The notes: generated from the sequence alone by a model not told the origin. A stretch of DNA of 64,000 nt from an uncultured Gammaproteobacteria bacterium (GCA_964540635.1 CAZINP010000002.1:20963-84962), one strand, 5' to 3'. Positions 2,295-31,498 are shown, numbered from the stretch's first letter. Program-made: numbers and translations.

Positions 2295-2690
2295 ATGAAA
2301 ATTAACATCAAGTGGACAAACATTGAAAATAATCAAGAGTTGGAAAAATTTATTGACGAGAGAATAGGCGAATTAAAAAAATATTTGCCCGAGCGCACTG
2401 AGCCGATTGATGTCAGAGTTGAAATCGGACGCACCACCTTTCATCATCAATCGGGTGATATTTACCATGCGGTTTGTGATTTGCGTTTGCCGGGCAAGGT
2501 TTTAAGGGCTCAGGCTGACAGGGCGGATTTAAATCAAGCCATTACTGAGGTTAAAGAAGAATTGCAAGGCAAAATAAAAAATTATAAAGAAGCGAATGTT
2601 GCTAAAAATCGTCGCATGCAAAGATTGTGGAAGGCAATTAAAAATTCTTCACCGATGGAGTGGGGAAAAGGTAAATTTATTAAAAAATAA
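2295..2690 (+). CDS. hpf: ribosome hibernation promoting factor / RaiA (S30EA family)
   Basis: 'MKINIKWTNIENNQELEKFIDERIGELKKY...' matches the RaiA/HPF fold signature. The start is moved to the ATG at 2295 to avoid overlap with the rnhA stop; the tracked ORF starts at 2250. Confidence 0.7.
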   Translation: MKINIKWTNIENNQELEKFIDERIGELKKYLPERTEPIDVRVEIGRTTFHHQSGDIYHAVCDLRLPGKVLRAQADRADLNQAITEVKEELQGKIKNYKEANVAKNRRMQRLWKAIKNSSPMEWGKGKFIKK

Positions 2691-2699
2691 TCAAAAAAT

Positions 2700-3335
2700 A
2701 TGATTTGGAAAAATTTTCCTTACCCGCTCAGGGGGATGATAATTTTTGCAGCTTTCTTTTTAGTTGTTAATTTCGTGCCTCAGGCTTCATTTATTCTGAT
2801 GTTGCCTTATTTTCTTATTTCGATGCCATTATATTTTTTTCTATGGGCCCTTTCTTCAATAACAAATATACAACCGAACGATTCTTATTTTATTCATGAG
2901 GGCTTACTCTTTTTTTATTTTTTAATAATCGGAGCGGTTGCGGGTTTAATCTATGGGAAATTAAAGAGGAGAAGAATTAAAATTGAAAATGAGAATAGAA
3001 TCACTTGGTTTCGAAAATTTCCTATTTGGTTTAGGGCTTTGATTATTACTTGGATTATTTCAATTATACTTATCCTACCAGTTTTTGCTTTGTGGTCATG
3101 CGTCGGTTTAACTTGTCTGGGGGTCGGTATTTATATGATGCCATCACTTATTCTCTCAATGCCGGTCCTTGGGTTATTCAGCTTGGTAATAAAGGATTTC
3201 TCACTTGAAAGCAACCCACCAATGATTATGTTTTTTGCTTTTATTCAATTTTTATATTTTACGGTTTTCGGACTTATTTTAGGCGTGATTATTCAGAAAT
3301 ATAAAGAGAGAAAATTAAATAATAGCAAACAATAA
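2700..3335 (+). CDS. hypothetical polytopic membrane protein
   Basis: Multiple hydrophobic segments and no recognisable catalytic motif. Confidence 0.5.
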   Translation: MIWKNFPYPLRGMIIFAAFFLVVNFVPQASFILMLPYFLISMPLYFFLWALSSITNIQPNDSYFIHEGLLFFYFLIIGAVAGLIYGKLKRRRIKIENENRITWFRKFPIWFRALIITWIISIILILPVFALWSCVGLTCLGVGIYMMPSLILSMPVLGLFSLVIKDFSLESNPPMIMFFAFIQFLYFTVFGLILGVIIQKYKERKLNNSKQ

Positions 3336-3338
3336 TTT

Positions 3339-3809
3339 ATGTTTGTTAAAATAAATAAAGCCGGCCTATTTTTATTTCTAAGTTTTTTGTTTTTTATATT
3401 TTACCAATTGTCAATGGCACTTGTTTCCTCGATTTCATTTTTAGATTCTTCTGGCTTGTTGGGTAAAATTTTGGTTTGTTTTTCACTTTTGATTTTAGCT
3501 TTTTCACCATTATCATTTATCTTGTTTTTGGTCTTTGCAGTTTTCATTAAAACCCCCAAAAAAGCCAACCTTGGTGATTCGAAACCAACCCCGATACAAC
3601 CTAGGAAAATCAATAAAGCAGGCCTATTTTTTATCTTGACGATCGTTTTTCTCTTGATTAATGGTTATTTTATTTCTCTTGGTTTGGCCCCGTCATCAGC
3701 GCCTAAGTTTTTGGATATTATACCTGCTTATTTCACCCCGATTATCCTTTTTGGCTTGCCAATTTCTTTTTGTTTATTTTTATACTTTTGGGCTTTCGGT
3801 AAAAAATAG
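3339..3809 (+). CDS. hypothetical membrane protein with internal duplication
   Basis: Two copies of an 'INKAGLF(L/F)...' hydrophobic module, at nt ~3346 and ~3605. Confidence 0.45.
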   Translation: MFVKINKAGLFLFLSFLFFIFYQLSMALVSSISFLDSSGLLGKILVCFSLLILAFSPLSFILFLVFAVFIKTPKKANLGDSKPTPIQPRKINKAGLFFILTIVFLLINGYFISLGLAPSSAPKFLDIIPAYFTPIILFGLPISFCLFLYFWAFGKK

Positions 3810-3842
3810 TTAAATTTTAATTAATCAACATAGCGCCATTTA

Positions 3843-4469
3843 TTGGCGCTTTTGTTGTATAAATTATTATTGTATATTATGTCTTTTAATTCAATAAAAA
3901 ATCAGCGTCGTTCAATTCGTTTGCCATATTTTGATTATTCCCAGGACGGTCAATATTTTATTACCATTTGTTCATTTGAAAAGAAAGATATTTTTTCACG
4001 GGTTGAAAATAATATATCAATTTTGAATAATTTTGGAAAGATTGTGGAGGAGGAGTTGTTAAATACCCAAAAAATTCGTAAAAACGTCATGATTGGTAAA
4101 TATGTTATCATGCCAAATCATATTCACGTAATTATCACAATTACCCGTGGTAGGGGCGCATTGCAATACGATTTTGCAACAAAAAATGGAAATCGTGGTA
4201 GGGGCGTATTGCAATACGCCCCTACGTTTGATTTTAATTACAAAAAAATATTTAAATCACCGTCGCAATCAATCGGTTCAATCGTGCGTGGTTTCAAATC
4301 AATTACCACCAAACGTATCAATATTATACGTCAAACCCCGGGCGTGCCGGTTTGGCAACGCAATTTTTACGAACACATTATTCGCGATGAAAATGATTAT
4401 CATCGTATTGTTGATTATATAAAATTAAACCCGGAAAAATGGCAATTTGACCGTAATTTCCGGAAATAA
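3843..4469 (+). CDS. REP-associated tyrosine transposase (RAYT, IS200/IS605 TnpA-like HuH)
   Basis: HuH motif 'MPNHIHVII' and C-terminal 'VWQRNFYEHIIRDENDYHRIVDYIKLNP' match the RAYT/IS200 family. Palindromic REPs lie inside and downstream of the ORF. The true start may be M13 (nt 3879). Confidence 0.75.
   Translation: MALLLYKLLLYIMSFNSIKNQRRSIRLPYFDYSQDGQYFITICSFEKKDIFSRVENNISILNNFGKIVEEELLNTQKIRKNVMIGKYVIMPNHIHVIITITRGRGALQYDFATKNGNRGRGVLQYAPTFDFNYKKIFKSPSQSIGSIVRGFKSITTKRINIIRQTPGVPVWQRNFYEHIIRDENDYHRIVDYIKLNPEKWQFDRNFRK
4146..4226. repeat. two tandem REP-like palindromic units inside the RAYT ORF (second is a perfect 28-bp palindrome GTAGGGGCGTATTGCAATACGCCCCTAC at 4198-4225)
   Basis: Direct reading: a self-complementary 28-mer beginning with GTAG; the first copy is degenerate on its right arm. 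Both are in-frame, encoding 'RGRGALQYDFATKNGNRGRGVLQYAPTF'. Confidence 0.8.
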
Positions 4470-4483
4470 AAAAACCGCCACAT

Positions 4484-4547
4484 CGGGCGATTAAATGTAT
4501 GGGCGAATTCATGTGCGGGCGTATTGCAATACGCCCCTACGCCCGAT
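4484..4547. repeat. REP-like element (nested palindrome; core GGGCGTATTGCAATACGCCC enclosed by ATCGGGCG...CGCCCGAT)
   Basis: Same core palindrome as at 4198-4225; an outer 8-bp inverted repeat flanks it. Confidence 0.75.
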
Positions 4548-4600
4548 ATTAATTATGGAAAATTTTTTAAATAATCCTAATAATTTTAACAAATAAAAAA

Positions 4601-4650
4601 ACGCCCTATCGGGCGAATTCATGTGCGGGCGTATTGCAATACGCCCCTAC
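4601..4650. repeat. REP-like element (second copy of the ~43-bp unit ATCGGGCGAATTCATGTGCGGGCGTATTGCAATACGCCCCTAC)
   Basis: Near-identical to 4487-4540, preceded by the small hairpin CGCCCtatcGGGCG; it abuts the stop codon of the minus-strand ABC-F gene. Confidence 0.75.
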
Positions 4651-6114
4651 CTAATATTTCGTTAAATCAATTGTCTCATCGATGCGAATCTCTTTCACAA
4701 AATCCGGCATATGCGAAACCATGATCATGGCACCGTCATAATCATGAATGGCTTTGGCAATTATTGGAATGTGGCGAAAATTTATGTGATTGGTCGGCTC
4801 GTCTAAAATCAATAATCCCGGTTTCATCAAAACCAAACGGGCAAACGACAATAAGCCTTTTTGGCCCTCGGATAAATCTTTAATTTTATTACCCATCAAA
4901 TTGCCGGTAATCAAAAATCCGGCGGCAACTGAACGCATTTTTTCTTCGTTTATCACTTCGTCGGTATTTAAAGCACAAGCGCTTTTTAAGGAATCAAAAA
5001 CCGTTTGTTCAAAATCAAGGTGGGAAAAATCTTGGCTGTAATAGCCAACCACGACTTTGGGTGTGATGGTGGCGCCGTGCGATTTGCCGGCTACCAAACT
5101 GCGCAAAAAAGTGCTTTTACCCGCGCCGTTTGGGCCGGAAACTAAAACATGCATTTTCTTACGCACGGTCAGCTCAATATCTTTTTGCAAAGGCTGGTGG
5201 CCATAAAAAGTCAAAACCGATTTAATTTCCACCACCGGGCCAATTACGTTTTGCGCTTCAATTTGAAAATCGCGAATTGTTTTATCTTCTTTTCTGACAT
5301 CAACCATGCTTTCTTCAAGTTCCTCGGTTTCTTCCTTGAGCTTTGAGGCCAGCTTTCTCATCTTACCGCCTTTATTGGCAAAGAAATTAACTTTTTCTTT
5401 TCTATCCTTGATTAATTTCTGGGCGCGGGCGTTTTCCATTCTTTCGCGCTCAATGCGCGCAGCAATTTCTTCTACCACGGTATAGTAATCGCCATTATAT
5501 GTTTCAATTTTGTGGGTATGAACATCAAGATAAATAACGCCGTCGGTAAAACAATTTAAAAAATCGGCATCATGAGAAATAACAATCACAGTTTTTTCGT
5601 ACATGCACAAAAAAGTAATCAAGTGGTCAATCCCGGCTTGATCTAAATTATTAGTCGGCTCATCCAAAAGCAAAATATCCGGATCTTGAATTAAGGCATA
5701 AGCCAAAAGTAAGCGCGCTTGCTGGCCGCCGCTCATCTCACCGACTTTTCTTTCAAAGGGAATGGACAGATTGACGGCATCCATAACCTTGCTAATTTTG
5801 CTTTTTAGATTACCCGGTACCGGGTTGAAAGCTTTGGCAAAGTATTGCTCCAAGGTCAAATCAAAGTCGGCTCTACCCAAGGTTTGAGGTGCCGCACCAA
5901 TGCTGGCGTTATTAGTAACTGAAATTTGGCCTTTTTTTGGTTTGAGCTGGCCCTGCATTAAAGCAAAAATTGTGCTTTTGCCGGCGCCGTTTTGGCCCAT
6001 CAAAGTGATTTTAGAACCACGGCGCACGCTAAAACAGGCCTCGTCCAAAAGCGGTTTATTGTATGAATATTCAAATGTGACCTCGTTAAAACGCAGGATG
6101 ACTTCTTCTGGCAT
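4651..6114 (-). CDS. ABC-F family ATPase (tandem ABC domains, no TMD)
   Basis: Two Walker A motifs ('GQNGAGKST', 'GPNGAGKST'), two signature motifs ('LSGGQ', 'LSEGQ') and two Walker B motifs ('LLLDEPTN', 'LILDEPTN'). Confidence 0.8.
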   Translation of the reverse strand: MPEEVILRFNEVTFEYSYNKPLLDEACFSVRRGSKITLMGQNGAGKSTIFALMQGQLKPKKGQISVTNNASIGAAPQTLGRADFDLTLEQYFAKAFNPVPGNLKSKISKVMDAVNLSIPFERKVGEMSGGQQARLLLAYALIQDPDILLLDEPTNNLDQAGIDHLITFLCMYEKTVIVISHDADFLNCFTDGVIYLDVHTHKIETYNGDYYTVVEEIAARIERERMENARAQKLIKDRKEKVNFFANKGGKMRKLASKLKEETEELEESMVDVRKEDKTIRDFQIEAQNVIGPVVEIKSVLTFYGHQPLQKDIELTVRKKMHVLVSGPNGAGKSTFLRSLVAGKSHGATITPKVVVGYYSQDFSHLDFEQTVFDSLKSACALNTDEVINEEKMRSVAAGFLITGNLMGNKIKDLSEGQKGLLSFARLVLMKPGLLILDEPTNHINFRHIPIIAKAIHDYDGAMIMVSHMPDFVKEIRIDETIDLTKY

Positions 6115-6293
6115 AAATAATGATAATTAGGCCATAATTTTGGCCCATTAGATAACGAGTATAACATAAAAGTATTGGAATGGCAAGGATTAGTGCGGGT
6201 TTTTAGTAAGCAGTTTTTGGATTGTCTTGATTTTGACAAAAGCGCTGAAAAATGGGAAAATTAGATTGAAATATTTAAAATATTTATCAATAT

Positions 6294-6920
6294 ATGAAAA
6301 TAAAAAAACAACTTTCACTTTTAATTTTTACTGGCATTTTTGTTCTATTTATAGTTATCTTAAGCGGATGTGTTTCCTTAAAGCCGAGATCGAATGTGTG
6401 CACAAAGGAAGCAAAAATTTGTCCCGACGGCACGACTGTTGGAAGAACCGGTCCAAATTGTGAATTTGCACCGTGTTTGTCTAAGGTTGTTTTGCCTGAA
6501 GGCTGGTTGAAATCTGCCAGTGAAAAGCAAGATTTAACCTTTTACTATCCGCAAGATTTTCCCGCGGTTTATATGCGTCCAAAGTCTTGGCCGCCGCAAA
6601 TTTTTGTTTCAACCAGCACATATAATTGTTTGCAAACAGATCCGACAAGCAGTCTGTCTAACCGGATTACCGAAAAGATTGTGAATTCAAATGCTTATTG
6701 CATTGAAGCGTTAAGTGATGGTGCGGCTGGCAGTATTTTCACAGAATATAAATTTTCTCGTGAAATTTCCGGAAGATTGATTGATTTATCTTTTACTCTG
6801 CAGGCTGTTCAGTGCTACAATTATGATGATCCAAGGCAATCGGAATGTATTGATGAGCGAGAAAATTTTGATTTGATTGAGTTAGTTGATAAAATTTTTC
6901 AAACAATAAATTTTGATTAA
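6294..6920 (+). CDS. hypothetical lipoprotein (Cys-rich N-terminal region)
   Basis: Signal peptide with lipobox 'ILSGC'; no catalytic motifs. Confidence 0.5.
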   Translation: MKIKKQLSLLIFTGIFVLFIVILSGCVSLKPRSNVCTKEAKICPDGTTVGRTGPNCEFAPCLSKVVLPEGWLKSASEKQDLTFYYPQDFPAVYMRPKSWPPQIFVSTSTYNCLQTDPTSSLSNRITEKIVNSNAYCIEALSDGAAGSIFTEYKFSREISGRLIDLSFTLQAVQCYNYDDPRQSECIDERENFDLIELVDKIFQTINFD

Positions 6921-6925
6921 AGATT

Positions 6926-7654
6926 ATGTCTAAAATAATTATCCTCGACACCGAAACCACCAGCCTGGACGAGACATCTCGTTTAGTTCAGTTAGCGTAT
7001 AAAAATTTAGAGAATGGCGATTTAGTGAACGAATTATTCAAGCCACCAACGCCGATTTCGTATGGGGCGATGGCAACTCATCATATTACCAACGAAATGG
7101 TGACAAATAAGCCGTTATTTGAGGGCAGTCAAACCAAGCAAAATCTCGAAAAACTTTTGGATTCCGGCGTAATGGTTGCTCACAATGCGTCTTTTGATAT
7201 TGGCATTTTAAAAAATGAAAATATTTTGGTTAAAAAGTTTATTGACACTTTACGCGTTTCTAAACATTTGATGTCGTGCGAACGCTATGATTTGCAATAT
7301 TTGCGATATTTGTTGAATTTTAATGTGCCGGAAGCCACAGCTCACGATGCTTTAGGCGATATTTTGATTCTAGAAAAGTTGTTTTTACATCTAAGCTCGT
7401 TAATTAAAGAAAAATTATCGTTAACAAATGAAGATCAGATTATTGAAAAAATGATTGAATTAACCAATGAGCCGATTTTGCTTAACAAAATTAATTTTGG
7501 TAAATATAAAGGCAAAACTTTTGCTGAAATAAATCAGCTTGACCCCGGTTATTTAACCTGGTTATACAACAGTGAATCCAGCAAAAAAGAACGTGAACAA
7601 AATGAAGAGTTAATTTATACTCTCAAAAAACATTTATATTTGGATAAAGCCTAG
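6926..7654 (+). CDS. DEDDh 3'-5' exonuclease (DnaQ-like) with C-terminal KYKGKTF/DPGYLTWL domain
   Basis: Exo I 'ILDTETTSLD', Exo II 'AHNASFDIGIL' and Exo III 'HDALGD'; C-terminal domain like the Exo X C-terminal/DUF3820. Confidence 0.75.
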   Translation: MSKIIILDTETTSLDETSRLVQLAYKNLENGDLVNELFKPPTPISYGAMATHHITNEMVTNKPLFEGSQTKQNLEKLLDSGVMVAHNASFDIGILKNENILVKKFIDTLRVSKHLMSCERYDLQYLRYLLNFNVPEATAHDALGDILILEKLFLHLSSLIKEKLSLTNEDQIIEKMIELTNEPILLNKINFGKYKGKTFAEINQLDPGYLTWLYNSESSKKEREQNEELIYTLKKHLYLDKA

Positions 7655-7679
7655 TTTAATTTATCTTTAGACTAAAAAT

Positions 7680-8078
7680 ATGTACGAAACCGTCGCCTGG
7701 TATCAAAGTTTAACCAAGCCTTTTTGGGCGCCACCAAGTTGGCTTTTTGGTCCGGTTTGGACTTTTTTGTATTTAATCATTGCTTTTAGTTTTGGCGCAG
7801 TTTTGCAAAAAACGATTTCAAAAAAAATTTCTTGGGTAATTGCCTTGCCCTTTGGTTTAAACATTTTTTTTAATCTTATTTTTTCACCAATTCAATTTGG
7901 TTTGCAAAATAACTTATTGGCGGCCATTGATATAATTTTAGTTCTAGCTACTTTAATTTGGGCGATGGTGGTAATTTGGCCAAAGATGCGTTGGGTTGCC
8001 TTGGTTAATATTCCTTATTTAGTTTGGGTTTGCTTTGCTACCATTTTGCAATTAACCGTTACATATTTAAATTTTTAA
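7680..8078 (+). CDS. tspO: TspO/MBR family tryptophan-rich sensory protein (short form)
   Basis: 'WYQSLTKPFWAPPSWLFGPVWTFLY' matches the TspO consensus (WY..L.KP.W.PP...F..VW..LY). Confidence 0.7.
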   Translation: MYETVAWYQSLTKPFWAPPSWLFGPVWTFLYLIIAFSFGAVLQKTISKKISWVIALPFGLNIFFNLIFSPIQFGLQNNLLAAIDIILVLATLIWAMVVIWPKMRWVALVNIPYLVWVCFATILQLTVTYLNF

Positions 8079-8082
8079 TTTT

Positions 8083-8478
8083 ATGTTTTTAAGATTGTAT
8101 TTTATTGCCCTGCCGATCGCCTTGGTTTTTGATATGATTTGGCTTGGCTTTATTTCAAGAAGCTTTTATCAATCCGAACTTGGTTATTTGATGAAAAGCA
8201 ATGTAAATTGGACGGCGGCCATATTGTTTTATTTATTTTTTGTGGCGGCCCTGATCTTTTTTGTCGTTGATCCGGCCGTAGTAAAAGGCTCTTGGTTTAA
8301 TGCTTTGCTTTTTGGCGCATTTTTTGGGTTTATTTGCTATGCCACTTACGATTTAACCAATCAAGCAACTATCAAGGATTGGCCATTATTAGTGACGATT
8401 GTTGACTTGGCTTGGGGAACTTTCTTTTCCGCCATTGTCAGCTTAACTACATATTTTATATATCAAAAGTTTTTTTAA
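8083..8478 (+). CDS. hypothetical membrane protein (possibly DUF2177-like)
   Basis: Four predicted TM segments; co-operonic with tspO (5-nt gap). Confidence 0.4.
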   Translation: MFLRLYFIALPIALVFDMIWLGFISRSFYQSELGYLMKSNVNWTAAILFYLFFVAALIFFVVDPAVVKGSWFNALLFGAFFGFICYATYDLTNQATIKDWPLLVTIVDLAWGTFFSAIVSLTTYFIYQKFF

Positions 8479-8486
8479 GATAAAAA

Positions 8487-10013
8487 ATGGCCCTAACTGC
8501 TTCCAAATTATACGATTACACCCAATGTCCGCATCGCGTTTGGCGGGATTTATATGGACCCATGTCCGAAAAAAGCGAAGAGTCAAATCCCTTTGTTGAG
8601 CTATTGTGGGAAAGGGGGATTAAATACGAAGAAAAAGTAATCAGTGGTTTGGGAGATTTTCTTAATTTGCGCGGCGTGCCACAAAAGGAAAATAAAAAAC
8701 AAACGCTTCAGGCTATGTCTAACGGTGTTTCTTTGATTTATCAAGGTGTAATTGAGTATGATGGTTTGTTGGGCATACCTGATTTACTTAAACGTCAGCC
8801 GGATAGTACATATGTTCCCATTGAAATTAAATCCGGCATGGGCCGCGAAGGCACAGGGGATGATGAAAGCGAAGACGAAGGAAAATTAAAAAAACATTAC
8901 GCCATTCAGCTTGGGTTGTATTTGGAAGTTTTAGCCGGTATGGGTTTTTCCAAAAATCATGTTGGCTATATTTTGGACGGCCACGGAAAAACGGTTGAGT
9001 ATAATTTGGATCAGCCTATGGGAGCGAGGTTAAGACAGACTTTTTGGGAATACTACCAACAAGGCAGAGATAATGTTAAATTATTGCAATCAAACGAGGC
9101 AAAAAACGATCCGGCACTTTCGGGAATTTGCAAACTTTGTCCGTGGTATCAAAGTTGTAAAAAATGGGTTGAAAAAAATGAAGATCCAACCGGTCTGTTT
9201 TATGTCGGCCGAAGTAAGCGAGATTTGCTTAATCAGGAGTTGAATATAAGGCATATTGGCGATATTTTACTTCTTGACCCAAAAGAAATCCTGGCGCAAA
9301 AGAAAAAAGATAAAAATTTTATTAAAGGTTTAGGCGAAAAAACTTTAAATAAAATTATTGACAGAGCGCGAGTTTTAAAAGTCAAACAAAAGCCGGTTGT
9401 TTATGAAAAGATTGATTTTCCCAAAGTCTCGTACGAATTATTTTTTGACATTGAAGATGACCCGACTCAAGAATTCGTTTATTTACACGGCGTTTATGAG
9501 CGAAGCAAAAACGGCGAAAGATTTTTAGATTTTACCGCCAAGGAAGTCAGTCCAAAAGCTGAGGCTGCTGCCTGGAAAGATTTTTGGGATTATATTCGTT
9601 CGTTGCCCCAGAACGATTTTGCCGTTTATTATTATTCGGCCCATGAAAAAAACACTTATAAGAGAATGCAAAAAACCTACCCTGAAATTATTTCAGAAAA
9701 GGAATTGGAAAACTTTTTTGCCAATCCAAATGTGATTGACTTGTATACCAATGTTGTTTTGACTAAAACTGATTGGCCGCTTAGCAGTTATTCTATAAAA
9801 GCTATTGCCCAATATTTAGGTTTTAATTGGCGCGACGAAACGCCCTCCGGCGCTTTATCAATTCAGTGGTTTAATGATTATCTAGAAAAAAATGATCCGA
9901 AAATTTTAGAAAGAATTTTGTTGTATAATGAAGATGACTGCAAAGCCACAATGGTGGTTAAAGATGCAATTCAAAATATTTCTGATAAACAATATTTAAC
10001 TTTTCAAATATGA
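8487..10013 (+). CDS. RecB-family (PD-(D/E)XK) nuclease, TM0106-like, with C-terminal RNase-H-like domain
   Basis: N-terminus 'LYDYTQCPHRVWRD' plus internal Cys cluster 'CKLCPWYQSC'; C-terminus 'FFDIEDDPTQEFVYLHGV...YYYSAHEKNTY' is exonuclease/RNase H-like. Confidence 0.5.
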   Translation: MALTASKLYDYTQCPHRVWRDLYGPMSEKSEESNPFVELLWERGIKYEEKVISGLGDFLNLRGVPQKENKKQTLQAMSNGVSLIYQGVIEYDGLLGIPDLLKRQPDSTYVPIEIKSGMGREGTGDDESEDEGKLKKHYAIQLGLYLEVLAGMGFSKNHVGYILDGHGKTVEYNLDQPMGARLRQTFWEYYQQGRDNVKLLQSNEAKNDPALSGICKLCPWYQSCKKWVEKNEDPTGLFYVGRSKRDLLNQELNIRHIGDILLLDPKEILAQKKKDKNFIKGLGEKTLNKIIDRARVLKVKQKPVVYEKIDFPKVSYELFFDIEDDPTQEFVYLHGVYERSKNGERFLDFTAKEVSPKAEAAAWKDFWDYIRSLPQNDFAVYYYSAHEKNTYKRMQKTYPEIISEKELENFFANPNVIDLYTNVVLTKTDWPLSSYSIKAIAQYLGFNWRDETPSGALSIQWFNDYLEKNDPKILERILLYNEDDCKATMVVKDAIQNISDKQYLTFQI

Positions 10014-10696
10014 AAAAAGTTGCAATATTTGATATTGATGGAACAATTTTTCGTTCAAGCTTGGTCATTGAGGCGACTGAAGCGCTAATTAATGCCGGAA
10101 TTTTTCCTGCGTCATGTCGAAAAATTTATCTTCCTGCCAAAGAAAGCTGGCGCAATCGTCAGGGATCATACGAAAATTATATTCGTGCCGTTGTCTCGGC
10201 TTTTGAAAATAACATCAAAGGCGTAAAGCGATCAGATTTTTTGCGAATAGTACACTTGGTAATTGATCGCAACAAAGATTTACTTTATCGCTATACTCGC
10301 GATTTAGTTTTAGATTTGAAAAAGCAAGATTATTTTTTGTTAGCCATTTCCCATTCGCCGTTTGAATTGGTTAAAGAGTTTTCGGAAAATTTAGGTTTTG
10401 ATAAAATTTATGGTCGCATTTATGAAGTCGGCCCAAAGAAGAAATATACCAGTCAAGTTTTGTATCCCCAATTGATAGATAATAAATTTTTAATCGTCAG
10501 ACGTGCTTTGGAAAAAGAAAATTTAAGCCTTAAGGGTTCTATCGGTGTGGGGGACACAGAATCTGATATTTCTTTTTTAAAAAAAGTCAGCCGACCAATT
10601 TGTTTTAATCCCAATAAAAAACTTTATAATTACGCCAAACGCGTTGGCTGGTCAATTGTGGTTGAGCGAAAAGATGTGATTTATAAAATCAAATAG
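10010..10696 (+). CDS. HAD-superfamily hydrolase (subfamily IB-like phosphatase)
   Basis: Motif I 'VAIFDIDGTIF' (DxDGT); motif IV 'GVGDTESD'. Confidence 0.7.
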   Translation: MKKVAIFDIDGTIFRSSLVIEATEALINAGIFPASCRKIYLPAKESWRNRQGSYENYIRAVVSAFENNIKGVKRSDFLRIVHLVIDRNKDLLYRYTRDLVLDLKKQDYFLLAISHSPFELVKEFSENLGFDKIYGRIYEVGPKKKYTSQVLYPQLIDNKFLIVRRALEKENLSLKGSIGVGDTESDISFLKKVSRPICFNPNKKLYNYAKRVGWSIVVERKDVIYKIK

Positions 10697-10786
10697 TTTT
10701 TAACTTGACAATGAATTTTAAAGAGTTATAATGTATTTAGATGTAAATATAATTTTAACAACATAGCGCCTCGGGCGTTTTTATTT

Positions 10787-11363
10787 ATGAAAAAATATCT
10801 ATATTATTGCAATTTTATTATTTTTATTAACTGGCTGTAGTGATGGCAGTAGCTATATTCCTGAAAAACAGGAAGTGAAAGTAAACTTAGTATCCGATTC
10901 CGACGGTTGGAAAACATATACCAATAGGGAATGGGGTATTAAATTTAGGTTTGAGGATAAAGAAAATCAATATAAAGCCTATTCAGAAGACTCTTTTATT
11001 GATGTGCTTTATTTAAATGGATTAAGTGGGCCGCTTTATTTGCACAGAGGCAGCTTGAGTGATTTTTCTCCTGTGGCAATTGATCTTGAGGAGTATATAA
11101 CAAAGTATGCTTGGCGAGAAATTGAAAATGCAATTAAGCTTGAAGAATATAAGAAATTTGAAATAAATAAAAATATTAATGCTTATGAATTAGATATTTT
11201 ATCTAGGGGCGTACAACATCCAATTAATGTTCCCGATACATATTCAATTTTTACAATTTATTATTTGGAATATACAAAATTTAATACATTTGATTATATA
11301 AGTATTTTTGGTGAAACGGAACTGGTTGATCGGGTGTTAAAAAGTTTTGAATATATAGACTGA
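10787..11363 (+). pseudogene. frameshifted paralogue of the lipoprotein at 11404 (signal peptide/lipobox in +1 frame relative to the ATG)
   Basis: The ATG at 10787 gives 'MKKYLYYCNFIIFINWL*'. The next frame reads '...IYIIAILLFLLTGCSDGSSYIPEKQEVKVNLVSDSDGW...', which continues into ORF 10875..11363 (GTG start). The paralogue at 11404 has the same 'MKKYL' start, a lipobox, and a 'W.TY.N.E(Y/W)G..F' motif. Confidence 0.55.
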
Positions 11364-11403
11364 ATTATTATAAAAACTATCAACATAGCGCTTGATACAC
11401 TTT

Positions 11404-11985
11404 ATGAAAAAATATCTATTTATAACGATTTTATCGCTGATTTTAAGCGGTTGCCAGGGCGGGCAAGTGCCGGCCGAAACTGTACCTGATCTTTCGCTGA
11501 ATACGGTAACAACAACCGAAGAAATTGATACTTCGGATTGGCTGACGTACAAAAATGAAGAATACGGATTTGAGTTTAAGTATCCAAAAGAGTGGAATAT
11601 TAATTTTGAAAATTATACTAATATAAATTCTTTATTCAATTTAAATTTAGTATATTTGGGTCCTACGCAAATTACTGATACAGAAATTTACGATGGCGCA
11701 AGGCTGACTATAAATTTGCTTAGCTTAAAAGAATATAATATTGAATTTTATATTAACAGTTTCGATGCAGGGCTGGATTTTAGAGATGAGGAATTTTACG
11801 GTCATAAATCAAGTGTTTATAGTGGAAAGTTAAAGTATGGCGACATAGTAATTGATAACAGTAAAAGAAAAATAATATACATAAGTGATGAAAAGTACAT
11901 TTATCGATTAGAGACAGTGTCTTTTGGTGATAATGGTAACCAATATGATCAAATAATTAATTATATCCTAGCAGGTATTCCTTAA
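11404..11985 (+). CDS. secreted lipoprotein (paralogue family; 'WLTYKNEEYGFEFKYPKEW' motif)
   Basis: Signal peptide 'MKKYLFITILSLILSGC' (lipobox). Start set at ATG 11404; the tracked ORF starts at 11392. Confidence 0.6.
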   Translation: MKKYLFITILSLILSGCQGGQVPAETVPDLSLNTVTTTEEIDTSDWLTYKNEEYGFEFKYPKEWNINFENYTNINSLFNLNLVYLGPTQITDTEIYDGARLTINLLSLKEYNIEFYINSFDAGLDFRDEEFYGHKSSVYSGKLKYGDIVIDNSKRKIIYISDEKYIYRLETVSFGDNGNQYDQIINYILAGIP

Positions 11986-12108
11986 TTAGACGGAAAAAAA
12001 TTCCGATTTTCTAAAAAATAATCAACATAGCGTCGTGCTTATCAGTTAAGCAAGGCGCTATTTTTTATAGAAGGTTCTTTGACAATCCAACAAACAAGGA
12101 GATGAGAC

Positions 12109-15100
12109 ATGTTTAGAATTACGTTTTGTTGCTTTTTGTTCATGTGTTCGGCTTATTCAGAAAAGCCAATGCTCAAACTCCCGTTTTCAGCTGGTCAAAT
12201 TTGGTCAATCACTGTTGGTTACGGTGGTAGCGATTATCATCAAAATGATGATTTTTATGCGCTTGATTTCAATCTTCCTGGAGATTCTGATCTGGGACAG
12301 CCAATCTTGGCAGCGGCATCGGGAGAAATTTTCTACGCTGGTTGGATGAATGGCTACGGTTGGACCGTGATCATTGATCATGGCTATGGTTACAAAACCA
12401 GATATGCGCATTTGAATTTAGCGCCTACCGTATCCGGTAGAATTTTACAGGGTCAAGAGATTGGAAAATGTGGTTCGTCGGGTGGGACAAGTACCGGTCC
12501 ACATCTTCATTTTGTGATGTATTTTAATGGTGGTCCTGAAATCCCAGAGCCAATGTCGGGTTATGCAAATTTTCAGGTTGGTGGTCGATATGTTTCTGAT
12601 AACTTTTTTTATAGTCAGGAGTTAGTTATCGGCTACCATCCAGATGGCTCTATCTCTCAGCCAATCCTTGACTACTACAGTCGTCCGGAACAAAACCTTG
12701 GTCAGCCGTTTGATAACGGCGGTGGACTTTACGTTCATGACTGGTCAAGCCAAGACGGCACGACCAAAATTACGCTTCAGGATTTTTGCTTAGGCAGTCC
12801 TGGGGTTGGCACACATTGCGCCATTGTTGAGTCCGTTGATGGAAACGCATACTCGCTGAAAGGTGCTTTTCGCTGGTACTACATGCAAAAAACCTACGAC
12901 GGCATGCCTTTTGATGCCGTTAAACTGCTTGGACCGCCAATTAACGATGGCGGAGCCACAGTTTACTATCCGATTTTGCCTGACGGAACCTTTGATTGTG
13001 TTGCCGGAAAGACCAGATGCTATGTCACCCAGAGCTTTGCCAATGGGTATGACTTTGTCTGGGACGGTAGCAAGGTTTGGTTGGTTCAAAATGTTTGCGG
13101 CCTGAATAAGGCGTTGAAATCGGTGGATTTTGACTGTAATGGTCAGCCTTACGAATTTCAGATTGCCGGCAGTTTGCCGGCAGAACCGGGATGCATTACG
13201 CTTCACGGTGCGGCCAATTGCTCTACCGGCGTTTATTTGGAGTGGTCAGATACTTTGTATCAAAGCCAGTTCTATCGTTTGTGGTCAAACGGCCAGCTGA
13301 GGGCAAATGTCGGGGCCAGGGGATACAGTGATTATCCGCTTTGGCCTTCAACAACCTATCGCTATCAGGTGGAAGCAATAACTTTTTCGGGGATGTCGCT
13401 GGGTTTCAGCAATGAAATCGTGGTGACCACACCGGAAAGTGAGCAGGAACCCGGTGGCGATTTGGGCGAGCCCTTTCCAGCGCGAATTGAGGCAACTTTG
13501 TCCGAATGCCTTTGGGTGTGGGGACAAACCTCTTCGCAAAACGGGATTTATTTGACGGCTCAAGTTTTTGACCAATACGGTCAACTGATGCCAAACGAAG
13601 AGGTGGTTTTTACCTCATCAAAGCCTTTGGTTTTTTGCGTCAATTTTGATTCCGGTTGGTGCAGTGCTGATGATGTTGGTCAAGCTGAAGTCTGGGCTCA
13701 GCACCGCGATTGGAGCGGCATTCGCTCGCAGAGAATCGCGGTCACTGTGGTCAACCAACTTCCGCCCGAGCCGATTGAACCGGATGTTTATGAATCATCA
13801 GGCTTGAAGCTTGAAAACTTCAACCTTTTGAGCCAAGGGCCGTTTGTAGAGTATTGTGGGTTGTTTTATTCGGTTCTGATTAGCAACCCGACCGATCAGC
13901 CCATTACTTTTTATGGGCCTCAGCTTTACCATTTTGACTTGAACGGCAAAACGGTTGGGGATTCGCCCTACAGCATTATTCCCACCACATTGCAGCCGGG
14001 TCAGTCGCAAGGTTTTGCTGACAGCGGCGGTCAAATTGGAGCGGCCGGAGAGTATTACTTGATGGCTATGGTCAACTTTGATGGACAATATGCTTCGCCG
14101 CGATATGTGATTGACGATTGTGCGGCTGGCATCAGCAGTAAGATTTACGTCAAATCTGTTTCTCAGGACGATTTAAAGGCAGACCTACAGGCCTTTGATC
14201 TCTACCTGGATAACTCTGCTCCATCAACCAATGATTTGATTGGCCTTAACGCTCGAGTTTTTAACTTCGGGCGAAAAAAAGTTGACGCGTCCTTTTCGGT
14301 CAGTATTGAGATTCGTGGAATCGGCAGTCAGTTCTGTGAAGTCGCCGGACTTGAGCCAAACAGCTATGAGTCCTGCAATATGTTCTTTGGCCCTTTGCCG
14401 GCAGGAGCATATACGGCCGATCTGATTGTTGATTCGCAAAACTCCATTCTGGAGGAAAACGAAGGCAATAATGTGGCACATTTGCCTTTTACGGTTTCGT
14501 CAATGAATCTGCCGCCGGTTATTATTACCGATTTGGCAGATAAAACAGTGGCGCAAGGCTCCAAGGTGATTTTTGAGGTTTTAGCCACGATTGCCGATCC
14601 GCCGAATGATCAAACTGATTTGCCAATAAGCTATCAGTGGCAGCATAACGGGCAGGAGGTGATTGCCAACAATTCTTCCCAGTTAATTCTGGAAAATGTC
14701 GGTTTTGACCAGGCAGGAAGCTATGCCTGCGTGGTTACAACCGCCAATGGTTTTGCTGCATCTAGCCGCACGGCCATTCTCACGGTTTTGCCAAAATTGA
14801 AAATCACCTCTCAGCCACAAGTTCTCACCTTGTTTCAGGGTCAAGCTCTTGAGAATTGTTTGCAGGCGGTTGGTGCTGGAACCTTGTCGTACCAGTGGTA
14901 CAAAGATGGCAAGATCATCTCCGGACAGAATCAACCTTGCTTGAAAATCGCATCGGTTCTTACTTCCGACTCCGGGTTCTATCATTGTCGGGTGACTGAT
15001 GTGGCTGCTGGTTTAACGCAGCGACTAAACACAAAAGTTGTTCAGTTGTCGGTGCGTCAAGTTGGTTCTGGTGCGCCGGCCGTTTATCTGGAGTATGTGG

Positions 15101-16322: not shown

Positions 16323-16357
16323 CTTTTTGCGGCTGCCGCTGGTGGCCGCTTTTTTTA
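16323..16357 (+). terminator. rho-independent terminator of the giant gene
   Basis: GCGGCtgccgctggtgGCCGC followed by TTTTTTT. Confidence 0.6.
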
Positions 16358-16645: not shown

Positions 16646-16672
16646 AAATATCTCAAAGAGATATTCTTTTTT
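16646..16672. terminator. bidirectional intrinsic terminator at the 3' end of rnpB
   Basis: AATATCTCaaaGAGATATT with an A-run on one side and a T-run on the other. Confidence 0.55.
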
Positions 16673-17049
16673 GTCCAAGTAAACTAGTAAGCCGAATTCT
16701 GTTTTTTGGTTTGCACCAAAATGATGATCATCTATCTGGGATCAATGTTGCCATTGACCTCAAGCTGCCTACCTAATTTGGCATTGCACCTGGCAGGGGT
16801 TTACCACGCAGACCGTCACCGGTCATTCGCGCGTGAGCTCTTACCTCACGTTTTCAACCTTACCGTTCTCGCAAGCGAGACTTAGGCGGTATGTTTTCTG
16901 TTGCACTTGCCCTAAGCTTGGCAAAAATTCAGAAGTCTTAAGAACTTCTGGCTTTTTGTTACTCTCGGTTCCCGTTAGGAACTGCCTTTTTGTGGTGTTC
17001 GGACTTTCCTCTCCGACGAGTCGGAGCGATCATCTTGTTTACTTGGACA
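16671..17049 (-). ncRNA. rnpB: RNase P RNA, bacterial type A
   Basis: The reverse complement contains P4 strands 'GAGGAAAGTCCGAAC' (5') and 'ACAGAATTCGGCTTAC' (3'). It has a 'GGTAAGAGCTCAC...GTGGTAAACCCC' block (E. coli: GGTAAGAGCGCACC...GGTAAACTCC). P1 pairing is TGTCCAAGTAAAC / GTTTACTTGGACA. Length is ~379 nt. Confidence 0.85.
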
Positions 17050-28744: not shown

Positions 28745-31498
28745 ATGGACGCTAATAAGAGCCAAAAATTTGATTTGATAAATTGCCCGAAATGCAATGG
28801 TCTTGGTTATTTTGAGGGTAAAACTTGTCCGGTTTGCTCCGGGTGGCGTTTGGTTGCCGTTTCGGATAATCGTATTTTTGTTTGGGGAAATGAGATAAGT
28901 AATTTTGAGTTTTTGCGGGAAAGAACTCATAGCATAATTGCCGGTTTGGTAAATTTTATTTTTTTAGCTTTTGGTCTTTTTGGAATCATTGTTTTGGGTT
29001 TAAAAATTTATAATTCTGAACAATCGCCACTTTTTTTATGGAATGCGCTCAGTTCCAAAGACGCTTTAATGTTAGTGTTTTGGTTATCACTTCTCGCTGA
29101 TTTATATTTATTTTATAAATTTGAAAGAGACCAGGAGAAAATTAAGTACCTACCTTCGCTAAGAAAAAAATTAAAAAAGAGAATATCGCAGCCACTAAAT
29201 TTTGAAAAAATTAATCAGAGACATATTTTTAAAATTGAGCCTTACTTTTCTTCGGGTGCCAGAAATGTTATCTACCAGGCTTGGTTAAAGGCAAGAAAGT
29301 TCAATAACTTTGAAGTTTTACCTTTGCATCTACTGATTTCACTTCTTAAAACCCGCCAAATTGAAGTTGTTTTTGGAAGATTGGGCACTCCGTTTTCTTC
29401 TTTAAAATCTAGAATAGAAAGCAGTTTGAGCGGATTAATGATCGATAAAAGTAAAACAATATTAAGCGATAAGCTTATTGCTATTATCTATCAATCTTTT
29501 TTCTTTTCTTTAAACAATCGTCAGAAAAAGGTTGAGATCCTAAATCTTTTTGAGGAAATGGCACTTCAGGAAAATGAAGTTAAAACGATTTTTTACGATT
29601 TAGATATTACTGAGGAAAAATCAAAAAATATTGTTGCCTGGATAAGGGTTAATGATATTTTACGCGATCGTTGGCACCACTTTCGCCAACGGGCAATTTT
29701 AAGGCCGAAATCAGGTTTAAATCGTTCAATGACGGCTATTGCTACACCAACCCTAAATGCTTTTGCCCAGGATTTAACGATGTTGGCTCAGTTTGGCTAC
29801 TTGATGCCGTGCATTGGCCGAGAAAAAGAATTCGAAACGATTTTTAGCGTGCTTAGCGGCGGACCAAGGCGTAGCGTGCTTTTAGTTGGCAACCCTGGTG
29901 TCGGCAAAAATACAATCATTGAGGGTTTAGCCCAAAAAATGGTTGAAGAAGATGTACCGGAATTTTTGCAAGATAAACGTTTGGTGAGTTTGAGTATTGC
30001 CAAGGTGGTTAGCGGTGTGGATCCGTCCGTTGCTCAAGGTAGACTTTTAATGATTTTGAATGAAATTAGGCGCTCCGGTAATATAATTCTTTATATTAGT
30101 GAAATTCAAAATTTAGTCGGAATAACCTCGGGAATGCAGGGGAGCATGGATTTAAGTGATGTTTTAGCTCAATTTTTAAGTAACAATACTGTTCTTTGCC
30201 TAGCCTCAACCTTGCCCGGAGATTATAAGCGCTATATTGAAGATAAAACTTCAGTGGATAATGTTTTTGAAAAACTGGAAATTAATGAGACGTCCGGCGA
30301 TGAAGCAATTCAAATCTTAGAAGCTAAGGTTGGTTCAATTGAGTATAAGGAAAATATTTTCTTTTCCTATGATGCAATTGCCAGCACCGTTGAATTTTCA
30401 AGCCGATATTTACACGATAGATATTTGCCGGAAAAGGCAATTCAGATTTTGCAAGAAGTCGCAAATTTAGTTCATGCCCAAAAAGGAAAAAATGCTCTTG
30501 TAACCGGGAATGACGTCGCTCAGTTAATCTCAGAAAAAACTAATATTCCTTTAACTGAAATTACGGCCGAGGAATCACAAAAATTGTTAAATTTAGAAGA
30601 TCAGATTCACCAAAGAATGATTGACCAAGAAGAAGCGGTTAAGATGGTTTCTGACAGCTTAAGGCGAGCCAGGGCGGAGATGAGAGATATTAAGCGTCCA
30701 ATTTCCAATTTTCTTTTTCTCGGTCCTACTGGCGTTGGTAAAACCGAATTGGCAAAATCTGTTGCGGAAGTGTATTTTGGCTCGGAGAAAAATATGGTTC
30801 GCTTGGATATGTCAGAATATCAAGAAAAAACCTCGATTAATCGTTTAATTGGTGCGCCAGCTGGTTATTCGGGCAGTGAAACCGGGGGATTCTTAACTGA
30901 AGCAATCAGAAAAAATCCATTTTCATTAATTTTACTTGATGAAATTGAAAAGGCACATCCGGATATTTTGAATTTATTTTTACAGGTGATGGATGATGGA
31001 CGCCTAACCGATTCCAATGGCAAAACAATAGATTTTACCAACGCGATATTGATTGCAACCTCAAATGCCGGAACTAAATTGATCCAGCAAAGAGTTCGTG
31101 AAAACATTTCTGTAATTAAAATTAAAGAAGAGTTGGTTGCTGGTGAATTGTTAAATTATTTTAGGCCTGAATTTTTAAATCGTTTTGACGGCATTATTGT
31201 GTTTAAGCCCCTGGCTCTTGAAGACGTGAAAGCCATTGCTAAATTGATGATAAATAAAGTGGCCAAAGATTTAGACGAAAAAGGAATTGGTTTGGTGGCA
31301 ACCGAAGAGGGCATTGAGTCCTTGGCTCAATTGGGCTATGACCCGGAATTTGGCGCCAGACCCCTAAGACGAGTTATTCAAGAAAAGATTCAAGATGAAT
31401 TGGCAAATTTAATTATCTCAAAGTCATTAAACAGACGCGATGTTGTCACCATTGGTTTAGGCGCTGTTTTATCGGTTAATAAGGCAAGTAAAATTTGA
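28745..31498 (+). CDS. membrane-anchored Clp/Hsp100-family AAA+ protein with N-terminal C4 zinc ribbon and degenerate NBD1
   Basis: Zinc ribbon 'CPKCNGLGYFEGKTCPVC', then two TM helices and Clp_N-like repeats. NBD1 Walker A is 'GNPGVGKNT' (Thr to Asn) and Walker B is 'ILYISEIQ' (DE to SE). NBD2 is canonical ('GPTGVGKTE', '[12 protein letters not shown]'). There is no ClpB-type M-domain. Confidence 0.75.
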   Translation: MDANKSQKFDLINCPKCNGLGYFEGKTCPVCSGWRLVAVSDNRIFVWGNEISNFEFLRERTHSIIAGLVNFIFLAFGLFGIIVLGLKIYNSEQSPLFLWNALSSKDALMLVFWLSLLADLYLFYKFERDQEKIKYLPSLRKKLKKRISQPLNFEKINQRHIFKIEPYFSSGARNVIYQAWLKARKFNNFEVLPLHLLISLLKTRQIEVVFGRLGTPFSSLKSRIESSLSGLMIDKSKTILSDKLIAIIYQSFFFSLNNRQKKVEILNLFEEMALQENEVKTIFYDLDITEEKSKNIVAWIRVNDILRDRWHHFRQRAILRPKSGLNRSMTAIATPTLNAFAQDLTMLAQFGYLMPCIGREKEFETIFSVLSGGPRRSVLLVGNPGVGKNTIIEGLAQKMVEEDVPEFLQDKRLVSLSIAKVVSGVDPSVAQGRLLMILNEIRRSGNIILYISEIQNLVGITSGMQGSMDLSDVLAQFLSNNTVLCLASTLPGDYKRYIEDKTSVDNVFEKLEINETSGDEAIQILEAKVGSIEYKENIFFSYDAIASTVEFSSRYLHDRYLPEKAIQILQEVANLVHAQKGKNALVTGNDVAQLISEKTNIPLTEITAEESQKLLNLEDQIHQRMIDQEEAVKMVSDSLRRARAEMRDIKRPISNFLFLGPTGVGKTELAKSVAEVYFGSEKNMVRLDMSEYQEKTSINRLIGAPAGYSGSETGGFLTEAIRKNPFSLILLDEIEKAHPDILNLFLQVMDDGRLTDSNGKTIDFTNAILIATSNAGTKLIQQRVRENISVIKIKEELVAGELLNYFRPEFLNRFDGIIVFKPLALEDVKAIAKLMINKVAKDLDEKGIGLVATEEGIESLAQLGYDPEFGARPLRRVIQEKIQDELANLIISKSLNRRDVVTIGLGAVLSVNKASKI

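Follow-up and report, generated by a model that had tools for sequence, protein, structure and literature searches.

The DNA studied here is a stretch of 64,000 nucleotides (nt), hereafter the window (GCA_964540635.1, CAZINP010000002.1:20963-84962), from an uncultured bacterium labelled Gammaproteobacteria, which the homologue names of its proteins place in the Patescibacteria, or candidate phyla radiation (CPR). The same locus is present on the Logan contig SRR8925758_10380. Four sites in the window carry the same short motif, in three of them followed by a hairpin and a run of T. The first (copy 1, c1) lies between an open reading frame (ORF) for a membrane protein of 156 amino acids (aa) and a RAYT gene (Y1_Tnp), and the other three (c2 to c4) belong to a cluster of two tandem lipoprotein paralogues and a gene for a 1397-aa M23/Ig protein. 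We conclude that the four copies are genuine and belong to a previously undescribed, low-copy family of Buchananbacteria-like CPR bacteria.

Four copies in the window

The exact 10-mer CAACATAGCG occurs four times in the window, at the places given in the initial annotation (3826-3835, 10759-10768, 11381-11390, and 12023-12032) and always on the plus strand and between genes, while the number calculated for both strands at the window's 37% G+C is about 0.09. For the 8-mer ACATAGCG, four occurrences compare with a mean of 0.83 over 100 shuffles, none of which had more than 3. When one mismatch was tolerated, there were six matches against a mean of 2.0, the extra two being located on the minus strand at 30230 and 31436. 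The covariance model R1, run over the whole window with its filters off, recovered c1 to c4 (scores in Table 1) and nothing else above noise, which bears out the earlier statement that the window holds no further copy.

The motif of c1 begins 13 nt past the TAG stop codon (3807-3809) of the membrane-protein ORF and ends 43 nt before the ATG (3879) of the RAYT gene. c2 is separated by 18 nt from the ATG (10787) of the frameshifted lipoprotein paralogue 1, which itself follows the T-run by about 4-5 nt. c3 sits between the two paralogues, 14 nt past a TGA stop codon (11361-11363) and 13 nt before the ATG (11404) of paralogue 2, which is PsbP_2-like. c4 starts 34 nt past the TAA stop codon (11983-11985) of lipoprotein 2 and ends 76 nt before the ATG (12109) of the M23/Ig gene, which has an AAGGAG Shine-Dalgarno sequence. 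The genes around the copies are those described initially. Because the lipoprotein genes are tandem paralogues with common 5' ends, c2 and c3 are not independent, and c3 is probably a decayed duplicate of c2.

A GC stem-loop directly followed by a T-run, the criterion for an intrinsic terminator, was found in c1, c2, and c4, the three copies for which it had been described. It was not found in c3, where the sole possible pairing is UAUCAA/UUGAUA around the motif. The hairpin of c1 is lengthened by an outer CAACA/TGTTG pairing. The motif of c2 would begin about 20 nt into the transcript of the promoter predicted upstream of it, and no alternative antiterminator fold was predicted for the c2 leader.

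Table 1. Positions of motif copies, hairpins, and related elements, in the window unless a related locus is named (L-numbers are labels of retrieved related loci).
Feature	Position	Strand	Sequence	Remarks
c1 motif	3823..3835	+	AATCAACATAGCG	pattern search; R1 48.3 bits
c1 hairpin	3832-3850, with T-run to 3853	+	AGCGCCA-TTTAT-TGGCGCT, then TTTG	-20.3 kcal/mol, z = -4.9
Promoter upstream of c2	10705..10732	+	TTGACA-16-TATAAT	sigma-70-type consensus; kept in orthologue L220
c2 motif	10756..10768	+	TAACAACATAGCG	two 5'-edge changes; R1 38.1 bits
c2 hairpin	10765-10779, to 10782	+	AGCGCC-TCG-GGCGTT, then TTT	TTTTT including stem end
c3 motif	11378..11390	+	TATCAACATAGCG	R1 13.8 bits
c4 motif	12020..12032	+	AATCAACATAGCG	R1 38.7 bits
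c4 hairpin	12028-12060	+	TAGCGTCGTGCTTA-TCAG-TTAAGCAAGGCGCTA, then TTTTTT (12061-12066)	14-pair stem, one mismatch
Type 2 unit, L080	2894-2950	+		sRNA-like, about 58 nt
Type 2 unit, L150	4501	minus		reverse-complement coordinates
Type 2 unit, L181	2048	minus		reverse-complement coordinates
Type 3 element, L221	~3250-3340			
Type 3 element, L222				
Type 3 element, L223	~9300-9365			
Type 3 element, L223	9905-9965			
Type 3 element, L152	~2300-2364			

Some further features of the region were recorded. Lipoprotein paralogue 1 has its ATG (10787) in a different reading frame from the lipobox (LTGC) and the remaining ORF (10875..11363), the cause being one additional A in CTATATTATT compared with paralogue 2 and the L220 orthologue; this reflects either a pseudogene or an assembly error. 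Directly past the stop codon of lipoprotein 2 and upstream of c4, a second small terminator-like hairpin (CGGAAAAAAATTCCG followed by ATTTT, 11991-12010) was found, which is missing from the L220 orthologue. A class A bacterial RNase P RNA (220 bits) is encoded on the minus strand (16672-17045), with the giant M23/Ig gene on one side and a sugar-transferase/glycosyltransferase cluster on the other.

Conservation, distribution, and gene context

A base-anchored alignment of 34 copies gave the consensus (A)ATCAACAT + AGCG(C) - variable top - (G)CGCT + TTTT. An invariant run of 12-13 nt, (A)ATCAACATAGCG (the tag), thus leads into a variable GC hairpin of 15-32 nt, whose stem is 94.9% paired and whose top differs among copies and among orthologous sites, and then into a short T-run. 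Most of the examples had been gathered with a pattern that fixes the 12-13-mer and a 4-bp stem foot, and compensatory changes were seen at stem pairs 5-7, i.e., the pairs that the search patterns left free. None of 500 shuffles matched the observed values, and slid controls were much lower. No conservation was seen in the alignment further up- or downstream of the element. The 9-mer AAUCAACAU directly 5' of the hairpin showed no complementarity to the 3' flank beyond chance, and, because it is not systematically complementary to that flank, it is predicted to be probably single-stranded. The U-tract is weak, consisting of 4-6 U and then an interruption, with a terminal A-U pair.

Orthologous loci were fetched via their proteins only, independently of the motif. 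For the lipoprotein/M23 cluster, the standard element is carried by two of the three orthologues. In L220, with a lipoprotein 56% identical, the c2 position consists of the promoter, ATCAACACAGCG, a hairpin, and TTTTATTTATG, and the c4 position (1337 onward) of the exact motif and a related hairpin with two pair-preserving changes. In L223, from a Buchananbacteria metagenome-assembled genome (MAG), the exact motif was found between the lipoprotein and M23 genes. The second set of loci was fetched with a family of 133-aa proteins (35 members, of which 34 share at least 51% identity with the query). In four out of four of these loci, (A/T)TCAACATAGCG with a hairpin and TTTT lies 8-10 nt past the stop codon of the 133-aa gene, within the order rnhB - methyltransferase - 133-aa gene - element - yraN - nusA, and none of the four, each 17-20 kb long, has a second copy. 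The copy number is accordingly low, with four per 64-kb window and one per 17-20 kb locus among those independently fetched. As a separate observation, about 90% identity to L220 was seen in the 5' untranslated region of the M23/Ig gene (12061-12111), which spans the T-run to the ATG and contains TTCTTTGACAATCCAACAAACAAGGAG; the protein identity of the neighbouring lipoprotein is only 56%.

The copies could be ordinary terminators whose common 5' flank is functionless and stems from local duplication and shared ancestry. Such an origin would suit the duplicates c2 and c3, and the window and L220 are close enough for whole intergenic regions to be conserved. However, TCAACATAGCGC is an invariant block in all four 133-aa loci, in which the flanks are unalignable and the hairpins differ (proteins 55-62% identical to the query), and the identical 12-mer stands behind the unrelated genes ahcY, rpoC, and asd in several genera-level MAGs, while other terminators of the window (e.g., 16329-16349) lack the tag. 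We consider a functionless flank highly improbable. A small mobile repeat, as the initial annotation had also proposed, or a miniature inverted-repeat transposable element is not supported, as only the 12-13 nt and the stem foot are shared and the copies stand at the same orthologous junctions in different species (in 4/4 and 2/3 loci, respectively).

The GTDB genomes were scanned with the pattern ATCAACATAGCG-N3-33-CGCTWTT, which gave at least 119 loci, most of them single chance matches in coding DNA of unrelated bacteria. Among the matches listed, a genuine, extended hairpin within AT-rich intergenic DNA was seen in about 15, which were clustered, often with two per genome. The records with the element were three Candidatus Buchananbacteria MAGs (JBAYMO01, MHIL01, and MHIR01), Parcubacteria ARS52 (NYZP01), the Patescibacteria MAG DATDWV01, and CAZCCC01, a MAG labelled Gammaproteobacteria with a CPR-like gene content. 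A scan of metagenomes with AATCAACATAGCG-N3-33-CGCTTTT resulted in 84 loci, roughly half of them with a strong hairpin. The exact 12-mer occurs 37 times in 277 kb of motif-selected loci plus the window, compared with 0.07 for shuffled 12-mers, a comparison that is ascertainment-biased, and the tag is invariant across genomes of 35-57% G+C. On viral contigs (IMG/VR), 15 matches were found, which are probably due to chance; the only terminator-like one among them has the 12-mer, a hairpin, and TTTTTTTT directly past the stop codon of a major-capsid-like gene (L002 2033-2071 and L015, 35-36% G+C). Rfam gave no match at the gathering threshold for the window, the copies, or six related loci, and in E-value mode only sub-threshold noise (atoC 28 bits vs 50, rimP 29 vs 47). 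Nothing relevant came up in full-text literature searches for the motif or for a terminator motif of CPR bacteria.

With regard to their neighbours, 27 standard copies are co-oriented with both genes, eight have a divergent gene upstream and a co-oriented one downstream, and five stand at the end of a gene and face a convergent gene next; none is antisense to both neighbours. The copies are absent from coding DNA and occupy intergenic positions in one orientation relative to the genes, either 8-85 nt past the stop codon of a gene on the same strand or within a 5' leader downstream of a consensus promoter. At sites with a divergent upstream gene, such a promoter lies about 20-25 nt upstream of the element (c2, L220, L082, L080, L150, and L181). 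The recurrent upstream genes are those for the 133-aa membrane protein (...RKFxKYIP*; eight loci) and adenosylhomocysteinase (ahcY; six loci), and also rpoC and asd. The downstream genes vary and encode YraN (before NusA), four-helix-bundle proteins of the 23S intervening sequence (IVS) type, RAYT (four loci), GIY-YIG and DUF559-like proteins, a 65-aa protein, ComM, PsbP-like lipoproteins, and M23 peptidases. The element is retained behind its upstream orthologue even where the downstream gene differs, and the next start codon often lies 3-13 nt beyond the T-run and has no Shine-Dalgarno sequence. One downstream ORF is unusual: in L104 (3053-4033), a single ORF of 326 aa joins an N-terminal part resembling RAYT (Y1_Tnp) to a C-terminal YraN domain (UPF0102), directly past the motif at the junction with the 133-aa gene.

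Of the functions put forward initially, the terminator or attenuator is supported by the hairpin with its T-run, by the transcription-tied orientation, and by the positions behind stop codons or in leaders; the motif is neither scattered through coding DNA nor absent from orthologous loci. An operator specific to secreted-protein genes, on the other hand, is not supported, because five copies precede a convergent gene and thus have nothing downstream to regulate. Moreover, the element in related genomes follows ahcY, rpoC, asd, and the 133-aa gene and precedes yraN-nusA, RAYT, GIY-YIG, 23S-IVS, and DUF559-like genes.

More generally, the motif could act at the DNA level, as a regulator operator, an uptake or recombination site, or a mobile-element end tied to selfish genes of the RAYT, GIY-YIG, or IVS type. 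Selfish nuclease-type genes are indeed often directly downstream: a RAYT gene starts 3-25 nt past the T-run in four loci, and genes for GIY-YIG, DUF559-like, and IVS proteins occur there as well. Full inverted repeats are formed by some copies (L152 4712, L223 10596), and the motif has TAGCG in common with the ops element of RfaH. This is largely refuted by the orientation and context, which are strictly transcription-tied and leave coding DNA free of copies. In addition, the copy number is low, the hairpin tops are not conserved, so that there is no common transposon end, the RAYT gene has different palindromes of its own, the 3' GTT required for attC is not conserved, and the element persists with its upstream orthologue when the downstream gene changes. 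A DNA-level role therefore appears very unlikely.

Several specific candidates were rejected as well. A repetitive extragenic palindrome (REP) of the RAYT was dismissed, since only the 5' flank and the foot are common to the copies and the tops differ in every copy. The RAYT gene is accompanied by its own palindromes, GTAGGGGCGTATTGCAATACGCCCCTAC, inside and past the gene, clustered at 4154-4646. Four REP-like palindromes, (GTAG/GTGC)GGGCGTATTGCAATACGCCCCTAC, lie at 4154-4225 and 4517-4646, two in frame within the ORF between the HUH motif and the C-terminal part and two just downstream. These palindromes, not the motif studied here, look like the cognate REPs of the RAYT. Against an integron attC site (R''(RYYYAAC)/R'(GTTRRRY), 3' GTT) spoke the unconserved 3' flank, which is not significantly complementary to the 9-mer, and the many copies without GTT; the same lack of complementarity led us to discard an extended palindrome. 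A DNA uptake sequence (DUS/USS) would be expected in high copy number, in both orientations, and also in genes, while the element is low-copy, intergenic, and in one orientation. A recoding signal (UAG followed by a hairpin) was excluded as the TAG of the motif is in no fixed frame to the upstream stop codon. Finally, a promoter with TCAACA as -35 or CAACAT as -10 is not compatible with a hairpin of 15-32 nt, the lack of conservation upstream, and the five copies facing a convergent gene.

Possible function of the element

The reading that we favour, albeit tentatively, is a factor-assisted intrinsic terminator or attenuator that would act on the nascent RNA. At gene ends, it would stop, or partly stop, transcription, and in 5' leaders and between cistrons it would serve as an attenuator that sets read-through into the next gene. 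It consists of the invariant stem foot AGCGC...GCGCU with its freely varying top and 4-6 U, and of the putatively single-stranded AAUCAACAU just before it; AAUCAACAU and the first stem bases would most plausibly be bound by a trans-acting factor that either promotes or hinders the closing of this foot. Termination would probably be partial or controlled in trans, because genes such as yraN-nusA and the c2 lipoprotein gene start a few nt past the U-run and because they have neither a promoter of their own nor a Shine-Dalgarno sequence. Since the c2 leader lacks an alternative antiterminator fold, its control would need a trans factor and not the RNA alone. As judged from sequence, the element would be an intrinsic terminator/attenuator with a lineage-specific invariant tag that has not been described previously.

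A candidate for the factor, as a lead only, is NusA, acting through its pair of KH domains. In Bacillus subtilis, NusA/NusG-dependent terminators are associated with a U-tract that is short and interrupted and with a terminal A-U pair (PMC8060035). In Mycobacterium tuberculosis, the NusA KH domains bind about 11 nt of extended single-stranded RNA of the rrn boxC region, in which AUA is critical (PMC2724277, PMC11261784). By analogy, the motif, being 9-13 nt long, containing AUA, and predicted to be single-stranded, would be compatible with a NusA-KH site, and the copy before yraN-nusA, the most widely conserved one, would then give NusA autoregulation.

Several points weigh against a factor-assisted terminator. 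The invariance of the tag is partly due to the construction of the search pattern, and only about seven sites were fetched independently of the motif. At the orthologous lipoprotein locus of L221/L222 (38% identity), no standard copy is present. c3 has the motif without a hairpin, and in a few cases the motif pairs with a reverse-complementary copy of itself (L152 4712, L223 10596). The core is also found in an sRNA-like gene and in an inverted-repeat element, the latter antisense to its neighbours. None of these cases is explained by a simple terminator model. The link to NusA, in turn, rests on an AUA-containing site of suitable length and on one genomic position.

The same features could be read as an RNA processing or stability site, at which an RNase of the Y or E/G type would cut the single-stranded AAUCAACAU, guided by the stem-loop. 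The upstream mRNA would be left unprotected, and the downstream mRNA would obtain a stabilising 5' hairpin and a U-rich stretch for ribosome loading, so that neighbouring cistrons would be uncoupled. The conserved, probably single-stranded stretch directly 5' of a stable hairpin would be in line with this, as would the start codons 3-13 nt past the U-run without a Shine-Dalgarno sequence and the predominance of copies between co-oriented genes (27). However, five copies face convergent genes, so that no cistron lies downstream to be stabilised, and the known RNase Y and E sites are degenerate and not invariant over 12-13 nt. We regard a processing site as unlikely.

The two further architectures, types 2 and 3, have a core of 22 nt in common, UAGGCUCAACAUAGCGCGAAAAGC; the tag of the standard form corresponds to its central 11 nt (UCAACAUAGCG). 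In type 2, found at an orthologous locus of L080, L150, and L181 that is divergent from a tRNA gene, a consensus promoter drives (AU)GAGCUUAGGCUCAACAUAGCGCGAAAAG-hairpin-UUUU. The layout comprises a TTGACA-N16/17-TATAAT-like promoter, a 5' hairpin (GAGC-UUAG-GCUC), AACAUAGCG, and a terminator, CGAAAAGCCCC...GGGGCUUUUCG-UUUU. The unit has no Rfam match and sits 50-120 nt upstream of a standard copy. A leader peptide MSLGST* in this unit was rejected, as L150 has no ATG and contains an in-frame TAA. In type 3, the 22-nt core TAGGCTCAACATAGCGCGAAAAGC is enclosed in an inverted repeat with an outer stem of 13-14 bp, antisense to both neighbours; genes for IVS proteins, GIY-YIG proteins, and lipoproteins follow closely downstream. 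Co-transcription with these neighbours would expose a perfect 22-nt complement of the type 2 core. A related arrangement was seen between lipoprotein and M23 peptidase genes (L152 4712-4770, L223 10596-10660), where the motif and its own reverse complement (CAACATAGC...GCTATGTTG) form a long hairpin without a short GC stem.

These forms raise the question of a family of small RNAs (sRNAs), including sRNAs derived from 3' untranslated regions, in which a seed, AAUCAACAUAGCG, and a terminator hairpin would be combined to pair with GCGCUAUGUUGAUU targets such as the type 3 elements. In L080, L150, and L181, a consensus promoter drives a hairpin-CAACAUAGCG-terminator unit of about 58 nt, c2, L220, and L082 are also behind strong promoters, and the type 3 elements (L152, L221/L222, and L223 twice), antisense to their flanking genes, offer the potential 22-nt complement. 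However, complements of the motif in the window occur at the background two-mismatch level only, and most copies stand at gene ends without a promoter of their own. No significant pairing was found with the stable RNAs compared (RNase P RNA, four tRNAs of the window, the L080 tRNA, and the 5' part of 23S). For the family as a whole, we hold an sRNA role to be distinctly unlikely.

A wider interpretation, which we offer as a speculation and consider rather doubtful, is that the 12-nt core marks an undescribed RNA-based control circuit of Buchananbacteria-like CPR bacteria. It would exist in three forms: the tagged terminators/attenuators, at a density of about one per 15-20 kb; a small RNA of about 58 nt with its own promoter, encoded divergently from a tRNA gene; and the antisense inverted-repeat elements. 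All three would be recognised by one trans-acting factor, which could be a protein of the Nus type or the small RNA itself and would set read-through into genes without a Shine-Dalgarno sequence. The genes controlled in such a circuit would include nusA, the surface lipoprotein and M23 genes, and selfish nuclease genes lodged behind terminators.

Almost nothing is known about the control of transcription in the tiny uncultured CPR/Patescibacteria. An invariant tag on a subset of terminators, among them the one before nusA, would offer a handle on factor-dependent termination and antitermination in this group. Annotation would also gain a new family of cis-regulatory RNAs, and the element may help to explain how promoterless downstream genes without a Shine-Dalgarno sequence are expressed, including the selfish nuclease genes piled up behind terminators.

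Comparison with known systems

The element resembles REPs in that the hairpin of c1 is directly upstream of a RAYT gene and that REPs double as terminators or stabilisers. REPs are, however, many copies of one imperfect palindrome with a conserved 5' tetranucleotide, whereas the copies of the element share the flank and the foot only. In common with the ops element of RfaH, it is an orientation-dependent element of about 12 nt found in the leaders of some large surface or secreted-protein genes without a Shine-Dalgarno sequence. The motif, however, does not match the ops consensus (GGCGGTAGnnTG), which acts in the non-template strand of operon leaders together with a NusG paralogue, and most copies of the element are at the 3' ends of unrelated housekeeping genes. 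No NusG-like domain or paralogue was detected in the 38 ORFs of the window that were scanned, which comprise every ORF of 80 aa or longer as far as 49944 but none of those from 49948 onward.

The overlap of a ribonucleic antiterminator (RAT) with a terminator, as in systems of the BglG/LicT type, is similar in that a conserved RNA overlaps the 5' side of the terminator stem and that a bound protein could prevent its closure. In contrast to a RAT, the conserved part of the element forms no alternative hairpin of that type, no gene for a PRD-type or other antiterminator was identified nearby, and its targets are not one metabolic operon. The motif also fails to match boxA, the NusB-NusE site of rRNA leaders (GCUCUUUAACAA-like consensus), and a separate boxA-like sequence, GCUGUUCUUUAAAC, was found in the 23S leader of L080. 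With nut-like signals (boxA/boxC), to which Nus factors bind on nascent RNA, the element nevertheless has in common a conserved, putatively single-stranded RNA box of about 9-12 nt beside a stem-loop, and it contains the AUA that is critical for NusA-KH of M. tuberculosis (PMC2724277). It differs from them in not being located in rRNA leaders and in overlapping the foot of a terminator and not preceding a long operon.

NusA/NusG-stimulated terminators and autoregulatory nusA leaders share with the element the GC hairpin, the short interrupted U-tract, and the terminal A-U pair, as well as the location at gene ends and in 5' leaders, with a conserved copy before yraN-nusA. The known NusA/NusG-dependent terminators, as far as found, have no invariant 12-13 nt 5' of the stem, whereas here it is this tag, carried by a small subset of terminators, that defines the element.

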